A program made the position numbers and the translations under genes. A stretch of 64,000 bases of DNA from Eledone cirrhosa. Taxonomy: Eukaryota. The stretch covers positions 1 through 64,000 of the forward strand of contig CAXHJY010000522.1 in assembly GCA_964016885.1 (NCBI GenBank). Direction: 5' to 3'. This document shows, piece by piece, positions 33,601 through 34,799 of the stretch. The notes beneath the pieces were generated by a model that had not been told where the DNA came from, made no database searches, and saw only the letters and a list, made by a program, of their open reading frames with translations. The first letter of the stretch is position 1. The number at the start of each line of letters is the position of its first letter.

Positions 33601-33955
33601 TTCAGGTTTGAGGTTCACCACTGGATAGGGCTGGTCAATTCCGTATGTTCAATCGCAATGTAATAATATAGAGAGTACTCAACGTAAAGCATTTCAACCG
33701 TCTTTGTTTTTGTAGTTGGTGGTGCTATTACGGAGTTAAATATTATAATGAAATGACAGGAGGCTGTATTTGTGTAAATCCTTGAAAGGTTTAATATACT
33801 ATGATCATTTCAATGACCGGGTTCCGTATGAATCCGGTGATATCATCAGGTATTCAAAATATAATACGTGAATGTAATAGAGAAAATCCATGGGGCTGAA
33901 AATCAAGGACCCGAGGGCGACCACCATCCAGCACCTACCTTTGCTGGTCGCTTTT
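33601..33955 (-). mobile_element. PLE pLTR-like fragment with hammerhead
   Basis: Hammerhead at 33796-33853 followed by the shared 3'-terminal motif (33662-33601) and (TA)n. Confidence 0.65.
33796..33853 (-). ncRNA. Type I hammerhead ribozyme
   Basis: ATAC-CTGATGA-TATCACCGGATTCATACGGAACCCGGTCATT-GAAA-TGATCA-TA-GTAT. Confidence 0.82.
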
Positions 33956-33960
33956 GGTAT

Positions 33961-34003
33961 ACGTTGCTGACGATAGCTAATAAGCTTGAAACTAGTACAG
34001 TGT
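33961..34003 (+). ncRNA. Minimal type I hammerhead ribozyme
   Basis: ACGTTG-CTGACGA-TAGCTAATAAGCTT-GAAA-CTAG-TA-CAGTGT. Confidence 0.87.
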
Positions 34004-34390
34004 TCCTTTGTCAATGTTGAACAAACGAGCAACGATGGTTGCTAGACACTACGGCTTAATACGGGATGTTTGTTTACAAACACACCGAGCATTATAATAA
34101 ATGTTCGGTGAATCCGTACGTACATAATAATATGTGTGCATATATGTATATATATATATACATACTACTGTATGTCTGTATACATATATGTATGTACGTG
34201 TACATACTTATATTTAAGTAACAGCCGTACTAAGCGTGGGAAATGAAATTTCGTTTCATTTTATCCGTCTATCATTTTCGGTGCCCCCGGCCGATTAACC
34301 CACTCGATATGCAAATTGGGTTACTCAGCCGTTAATATGCATAAGGAAAGTATATACTTTCAGGCGTTCAACAATCTGGCAGGAAGGTAT

Positions 34391-34433
34391 ACGTTGCTGA
34401 CGATAGCTAATAAGCTTGAAACTAGTGCAGCGT
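34391..34433 (+). ncRNA. Hammerhead with mutated cleavage triplet (GUG)
   Basis: Same motif but CTAG-TG, which violates the NUH rule. Confidence 0.7.
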
Positions 34434-34569
34434 TCCTTTGTCAGTGTTGAATAAACGAGCAACGATGGTTGCTAGACACTACGGCTTAATACGGGATGTT
34501 TGTTTACAAACACACCGACCATTATAATAAATGTTCGGTGAATCCATACGTACATATATATATGTGTGC

Positions 34570-34612
<43 letters not shown>

Positions 34613-34717
34613 CTACTGTACGTCTGTATACATATATGTATGTACGTGTACATACTTATATTTAAGTAACAGCCTTACTAAGATCGAGAAATGAAATTTC
34701 GTTTCATTTTTTCCGTT

Positions 34718-34799
<82 letters not shown>

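Follow-up and report, generated by a model that had tools for sequence, protein, structure and literature searches.

A head-to-head junction between a pLTR-like fragment and a retrozyme in Eledone cirrhosa: a candidate product of Penelope-type twin priming on two RNAs

Introduction

The enzyme that mobilises animal retrozymes has been sought among Penelope-type elements (PLEs), which were proposed for this role from co-occurrence and phylogeny alone. PLEs were put forward as retrozyme partners by Cervera and de la Pena (2020; PMC7229834), and co-occurrence together with pLTR phylogeny backs a PLE partner in the work of Li, Clavereau and Pollet (2026; 10.64898/2026.07.22.740005), which leaves the mechanism open in the portion of its text available to us.

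In EN+ PLEs of the Hydra clade, a head-to-head inverted arm is a standard feature (Craig et al. 2021, PMC8557442; Arkhipova et al. 2013, PMC3846280). Section 11 of PMC8557442 describes for this clade the motifs that we also find in the reading frames treated below, together with (TA)n insertion and hammerheads. For the inverted arm, the accessible parts of both sources propose self-priming without showing it. The protein of the Poseidon PLE cuts and extends both strands, is a predicted dimer and uses a fixed internal start in vitro (PMC11167929). In LINE-1 (L1) chimeras, template switching or RNA ligation leads to the same orientation and twin priming to the opposite orientation, and twin priming on two RNAs has already been proposed for L1 (PMC13174262). 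Dual hammerheads on opposite strands, 100-700 bp apart, have also been noted (PMC4209133).

Inversions within one family cannot tell fold-back from priming on two templates, but a junction between two families can. Here, we describe such a junction in the window, by which we mean the whole analysed stretch of 64,000 nucleotides of Eledone cirrhosa DNA.

Results

Two unrelated families are joined 5'-to-5' in one TA-flanked block

The block spans 33602-34717 and consists of two arms joined 5'-to-5', arm A on the minus strand (33602..33955) and arm B on the plus strand (33956-34717). As read from the sequence, it lies in a TA target array, with a microsatellite of about 32 bp on the left (33570..33601), abutting the 3' end of arm A, and one of about 134 bp on the right (34718..34851), abutting the 3' end of arm B. 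The arms come from high-copy families unrelated to each other; each arm has its 3' end on TA and is truncated at its 5' end. In the block, each arm lacks an inverted partner of its own, and the other family occupies that place. The opposite-strand hammerheads of the block are 118 bp apart, one of the PLE type and the other of the retrozyme type.

The head-to-head junction (33955..33956) has no TA spacer. Retrozyme homology begins exactly at 33956 in a BLAST search against the masked window, and the junction falls in the distal part of helix I of the retrozyme hammerhead. Thus, arm B halts inside helix I of its own hammerhead, and arm A halts just beyond a GC-rich hairpin at its 5' truncation point (33912..33957; -16.7 kcal/mol in the sense of arm A). 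Breakpoints at helices on both sides fit stalling of the reverse transcriptase (RT), though hairpins are common in these RNAs. We found no palindrome at the junction and no ORF in the block; microhomology is not readable at the junction, nor is a TSD around the block in its TA target. The chimeric block is real in the assembly and was correctly described in the preliminary description, which had reported a join to a plus-strand retrozyme dimer at about 33956 without a TA spacer; the join and the missing spacer hold, and the "dimer" amounts to 1.77 monomers.

Two RTE fragments (33243-33564 and 34852-35462; 94.4% alike) enclose the block 5'-to-5', with TA between each of them and the block. Further divergent RTE pairs of a similar kind lie at 42874/43275.

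PLEs and their neighbours in the window

The window is rich in TA microsatellites, and these arrays are interrupted by LINE fragments of the RTE type, by two PLE frames and by several repeats that bear hammerheads. The open frame of PLE1 (13630..24463, minus) is 830 codons long (17708-20200) and carries Hydra-clade motifs; the element also has pLTR hammerheads and an inverted arm in head-to-head orientation. PLE2 (28591..32126, plus) has a 5'-truncated frame (29020-30888), an inverted arm and a hammerhead at 32034. Both frames carry CxCx5C, CxxC, CxH and YRDD, and the frame of PLE1 also RWR and DKT. Pfam returned 0 families for both frames; their Atlas look-alikes carry GIY-YIG/RVT families, and the assignment to the Hydra clade rests on the motifs together with these look-alikes.

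A head-to-head arm is present in four of the five other blocks that match our hammerhead descriptor (see below), namely PLE1, PLE2 and the retrozyme blocks at 27419 and 58274, but not in the repeat at 47935. The earlier statement that the chimeric block has the same geometry as the 5' inversions of PLEs in this region is borne out by the head-to-head PLE inversions. Most RTE 5' ends in the window retain their TA flank, and RTE neighbours arranged 5'-to-5' are separated by TA.

Several further features were observed in the window. The inverted arm of PLE1 measures 3.7 kb and is 99.4-99.8% identical to its counterpart; both arms hold about 3.6 kb between the ORF and the downstream pLTR, a stretch that is probably captured flank. 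In the PLE1 hammerhead, the helix II region measures about 115 nt and the triplet is GUU. A 2,074-bp RTE fragment occurs at 4030-6103 and again at 9057-11130 (99.95% identical, TA flanks included, period 5,027 bp) and reflects either a recent segmental duplication or an assembly duplicate. At 45107-45540, RTE 3' ends are inserted tail-to-tail, with a short internal tandem duplication (45225-45432). The tandem repeat at 47935-49076 (83.6% over 329 bp) carries a long-helix-II hammerhead (core 48011, C-TCGA-G-TC) and terminates on an (AG)n tract instead of TA, and no inverted arm was seen there.

Arm A carries a PLE-type hammerhead motif

Arm A is a 5'-truncated, pLTR-like fragment of a high-copy family. 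A minus-strand hammerhead had been claimed for 33601-33955, and our analysis supports it. The motif (33790..33859, minus) is of type I and of the PLE type, with the core CTGATGA at 33849, GAAA, a long helix II (-9.1 kcal/mol) and a 6-nt palindromic helix III (T-GATC-A); AUA cleavage is predicted after 33800. We ran a descriptor for type I hammerheads with palindromic helix III on the 46,494 unmasked bases, and it matched 11 times in comparison to a mean of 0.035 (maximum 1) in 200 resamples; among the 11 is the minus-strand core at 33849. When arm A itself was resampled 5000 times, 0/5000 gave a descriptor match. The closure T-NNNN-A-TA is the same as in the PLE2 hammerhead (core 32034), and the GATC loop is the same as in PLE1.

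Rfam gave no hammerhead at the gathering threshold or at E<=10, its E-value list consisting of TA-repeat noise, and the MFE fold of the arm A motif is not hammerhead-shaped (z -0.97). The hammerhead pattern of arm A had zero matches in the genome, viral and metagenome contigs scanned, and that of the retrozyme had zero matches in the genome and viral contigs scanned.

Arm A resembles the terminal region of PLE1

The 3' terminal region of arm A (33602..33661, minus) contains CATACGGA, in a motif that recurs at the 13630 end of PLE1, the Hydra-type PLE. A test of the last 60 nt of arm A against the PLE1 end gave a p of about 0.002, as one of 8 comparisons, and another, different PLE1 end likewise gave p 0.002. 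This region is likely the RT start of family A. The distance from the predicted cleavage site to the end is 198 nt in arm A and 196 nt in PLE1. Global alignment of the post-cleavage segments scored 69 against 36.3 +/- 9.1 (reached by 1/1000 shuffles), whereas the scores of two controls were reached by 219/500 and 485/500 shuffles; this comparison was picked after the match had been seen, and the similarity is distant. Both the cleavage-to-end distance and the global alignment agree with the PLE terminal motif that had been proposed for arm A.

Upstream of the hammerhead, no similarity between arm A and PLE1 was detected (393/1000 shuffles). Local alignment of the whole fragment with 11 targets in the window gave no significant result, the best being borderline (8/200 shuffles); PLE1 is the closest relative of arm A in the window. 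A BLAST search against the masked window revealed no second copy of 33602-33955. Arm A contains no ORF, and a parent ORF of the family was not found. In our reading, arm A is the putative pLTR terminus of a distant relative of PLE1, a PLE family otherwise unseen. It may also represent a second retrozyme family with a large monomer (above about 500 bp). Self-pairing of arm A is not strong (z -1.1) in comparison to the retrozyme monomer (z -7.0), and none of the nine joints listed from public sequencing runs (see below) is a tandem joint of family A. The motifs of arm A were not found in the accessible supplement of PMC8557442, where line breaks could hide matches.

Two non-coding neighbours have short words in common with arm A. 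The TA-flanked element at 35581-37065 has 555-bp inverted arms (94.9%) around a 220-bp centre, no descriptor hammerhead and a 14-bp word in common with arm A. The short TA-flanked element at 59173-59607 directly adjoins the retrozyme block 58274-59125 and has two diverging arms with a shared terminal motif; CCAGTGGTGAA from this element recurs near the 3' end of arm A. It carries a degenerate hammerhead-like core at 59269 (minus) and is possibly a third pLTR family.

Arm B belongs to a retrozyme family with inverted arms and a reused 3' end

Arm B comprises its 1.77 monomers in head-to-tail order, with two hammerheads. Monomer B1 (33956..34385, plus, 430 bp) has its hammerhead core at 33967 with a GUA site, and the partial monomer B2 (34386..34717, plus, 332 bp), whose core lies at 34397, has GUG as its cleavage triplet. 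Arm B lacks the two consecutive intact hammerheads by which Li et al. 2026 define an active copy; two intact hammerhead motifs are present in the retrozyme block at 27440-28146. The z of -7.0 for the monomer is helped by TA hairpins. The monomer has no ORF of at least 120 aa, and neither arm A nor the pLTR ends of PLEs show detectable similarity to it. Between B1 and B2, 19/314 sites differ, a divergence that does not prove a single circular template.

Two further retrozyme blocks lie in the window. The second (27419..28146, plus) bears an inverted arm that repeats 21 bp of its own 3' end, and the third (58274..59125) is a head-to-head inversion of itself with a junction near 58843/58849. An inverted 5' arm is thus present in 3/3 retrozyme blocks of the window, as the 21-bp arm at 27419, the full self-inversion at 58274-59125 and arm A. 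Three of the five TA-joined retrozyme 3' ends coincide at one position that follows a hairpin and lies about 290 nt downstream of, rather than at, the predicted cleavage site; the 3' site of B2 is reused at 27419 and 58274. The other two fall 65-80 nt earlier, in TA-like sequence. The monomer also has an internal TA-rich palindromic tract of variable length (34130-34205, 34545-34655), and the retrozyme ends 28146 and 59125 lie in or just after this tract, which is a potential PLE target and priming site.

Public sequencing runs contain both families and lack the junction

Part of 33602-33986 was present in 11 of the 20 runs listed, under eight organism labels and with a best share of 0.31; the share was below 0.2 in eight of the 11, including two of the four runs that we compared. 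None of the matching runs listed was an RNA run, so these data have no bearing on expression. Four runs (X1, X18, X7 and X4), whose species may differ from the host, were compared to 33602-34129 at 80% likeness. This aligned 5,389 records from X1 (contigs), 31,079 from X18 (reads) and 11 and 47 from the other two runs.

Summed depth in X1 was 16,000-650,000 over the part of arm A at 33602-33925, compared to 0.8-1.8 million for the retrozyme. One X4 contig extends family A by 212 letters further upstream. Records of family A diverge from the window at 33922 with related letters (at least 14 X1 contigs and at least one X7 contig), and a small depth persists over 33926-33943. Therefore, the last 33 bp of arm A are probably a subfamily variant. 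The loose ends of the family reads suggest a hairpin related to that at 33912..33957. A de novo snap-back insert at the end of arm A was also considered and is unlikely, since the loose ends of the family carry related sequence.

The 33955/33956 junction is absent from the reads and contigs of the four runs, which thus give no independent confirmation. Depth at 33955 is 0 in X1, X7 and X4, and all seven X18 reads at this position carry another letter. At 33956, ordinary retrozyme continues in 15,064 X18 reads and 79 X1 contigs. Since the reads continue as retrozyme and none of them bridges, we conclude that the junction is locus-specific and uncommon in family A, and that the retrozyme family does not carry the arm A segment as a constant component, a point that the preliminary description had left to be checked.

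Five of the nine joints listed change strand, four of them between retrozyme copies (X18) and one between two copies of family A (a single X1 contig). Three of the four X18 retrozyme joints listed have arm lengths that imply head-to-head geometry; one of the four joints, made up of 80 reads, has a single start. Three joints were listed at 33956/33958, and we rejected a recurrent breakpoint at 33956 in the reads, because this position is where retrozyme homology begins and because the 58843/58878 junction of the window would map alike.

Arm A differs from its family records at 6-7 near-fixed positions in about 295 sites (among the variants listed), and private changes amount to 7/255 columns in B1 and 4/255 in B2. 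The divergence of arm A and arm B is alike (Fisher p 0.8) in a comparison that has little power, uses two different yardsticks and draws on runs that may be of another species.

Discussion

A proposed single integration on two RNAs

We propose, at roughly even odds (about 0.5), that the block arose in one Penelope-type integration into a TA array, in which twin priming copied two different RNAs; this is the simplest account of its structure. Slightly more tentatively, we suggest that the two DNA ends of one Hydra-type PLE integration were extended on different templates, one on a pLTR RNA and the other on a retrozyme RNA. In such an event, the endonuclease of a Hydra-type PLE would cut both strands of the TA array. 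Reverse transcription from one DNA end would use an RNA of family A that bears a pLTR and would begin where it usually does, some 198 nt beyond the hammerhead; the other end would prime on multimeric or circular retrozyme RNA, likewise at the usual start of that RNA. Both cDNAs would halt early, each near an RNA helix, and end-joining would unite them. The retrozyme would thus be copied in trans by PLE machinery, and no template switch of the RT would be involved. By analogy with L1, the opposite orientation of the two arms, joined 5'-to-5', points to twin priming on two RNAs rather than to a template switch. The reused 3' site of the retrozyme would fit the fixed internal start shown for the Poseidon PLE, and self-priming would not account for a junction of two families that arose in one event.

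Points against a single event are that only one such junction was found (n=1) and that the window is a nest of TA-array insertions in which neighbours are common. One integration, as the preliminary description had it, is favoured within the twin-priming reading but is not established by one junction with no readable TSD and no bridging read. Two separate landings in the same TA array, fused either by a target-site deletion at the second landing or by later loss of the spacer and of any inverted arms of their own, are the main alternative, a possible though not a probable origin of the block. The window is packed with TA-array elements, including the RTE neighbours that lie 5'-to-5' with TA between them, and AT arrays and inverted repeats are prone to deletion, which we count in favour of this origin. 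For PLEs, nesting of one element within another in opposite orientation has been described, as has a 5' junction that lacks a TSD (PMC3846280). However, both arms would have had to shed their 5' flanks completely, TA included, when most RTE 5' ends in the window keep theirs, and the outcome would exactly mimic the routine head-to-head product. The similar divergence of the two arms also argues against separate landings, as a weak point.

The template switch between PLE RNA and retrozyme RNA that had originally been suggested does not agree with the orientation of the arms, because a switch from sense to sense RNA yields chimeras in the same orientation (PMC13174262) and the junction is in opposite orientation. 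For this geometry, a switch of the RT within one integration would need an antisense RNA of the other family, or one of its cDNA or DNA strands, as the new template, and is unlikely. Proposals of antisense templates and of template jumps exist for PLEs (PMC3846280), and an RT could stall at the RNA helices that coincide with the two breakpoints; yet the far arm would not be expected to end on TA at the RT start of its family, and both outer ends of the block are at family 3' sites. It is more improbable still that read-through RNA from a composite donor brought in an A/B arrangement that was already fused. PLE1 holds its probable captured flank of about 3.6 kb in both arms and flank capture is described for PLEs (PMC3846280), but a donor of this kind was not multicopy in the four runs, none of whose records contains the junction, and it merely shifts the question of origin to the donor. 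Least likely of all is an assembly or chimeric-read artefact uniting two repeats. No public record that we compared bridges the junction, and the region is repeat-rich, with its 99.95% identical 2-kb duplicate; on the other hand, the runs contain none near-identical to the window (best share 0.31), the arms have no common sequence to seed a misjoin, and the geometry and both outer ends agree with biologically meaningful sites.

If twin priming on two RNAs is true, the block would be physical evidence for trans mobilisation of retrozymes by PLE enzymes. It would also mean that the PLE inverted arm can arise by independent priming on a second RNA, with neither self-priming nor fold-back of one molecule. 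With one junction only, we regard the block as a lead and not as the direct evidence of PLE mobilisation that it had first been taken for. The behaviour of the retrozyme across its family, with its own head-to-head inversions, TA target and one reused 3' end, supports mobilisation by PLEs better than the single chimera does. If junctions between family A and the retrozyme recur, their counts in the assembly would bear on retrozyme mobilisation and on the origin of the inverted arm together.

Comparison with known systems

In the full-text literature searched, a scope outside which most subscription journals lie, we found no report of a heterologous head-to-head junction between a PLE and a retrozyme. 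The retrozyme resembles the metazoan non-LTR retrozymes in its tandem non-coding monomers, type I hammerhead, high copy number and strong self-pairing, and its monomer of 430 bp is slightly above their RNA range of 170-400 nt (PMC7229834, 10.64898/2026.07.22.740005). The evidence given in the available portions of PMC7229834 and 10.64898/2026.07.22.740005 consists of co-occurrence, shared hammerheads and pLTR phylogeny, and insertion junctions or inversions are not reported in these portions.

The large helix II and small palindromic helix III are also found in the hammerheads described in PMC4209133, which likewise occur mostly as solo truncated copies. Unlike the opposite-strand pairs noted there, those of the block are of different types, one PLE-type and one retrozyme-type. 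With the chimeras of antisense RNA and LINE-1 attributed to twin priming (tRNA/L1, 5S/L1), the block has in common two RNAs in opposite orientation in one insertion (PMC13174262). Those chimeras involve an APE endonuclease and many loci, whereas the block would imply a GIY-YIG PLE and is a single locus with an unreadable TSD.

With the EN+ PLEs of the Hydra clade, the block has in common an inverted arm placed head-to-head, truncation at the 5' end, insertion into (TA)n and a pLTR hammerhead (PMC8557442, PMC3846280). The block differs from them, as far as these sources are available to us, in having no ORF and no palindrome at the junction, a feature invoked by the self-priming model. In these sources, the inverted arm of EN+ PLEs is a copy of the same element, whereas that of the block belongs to an unrelated family.
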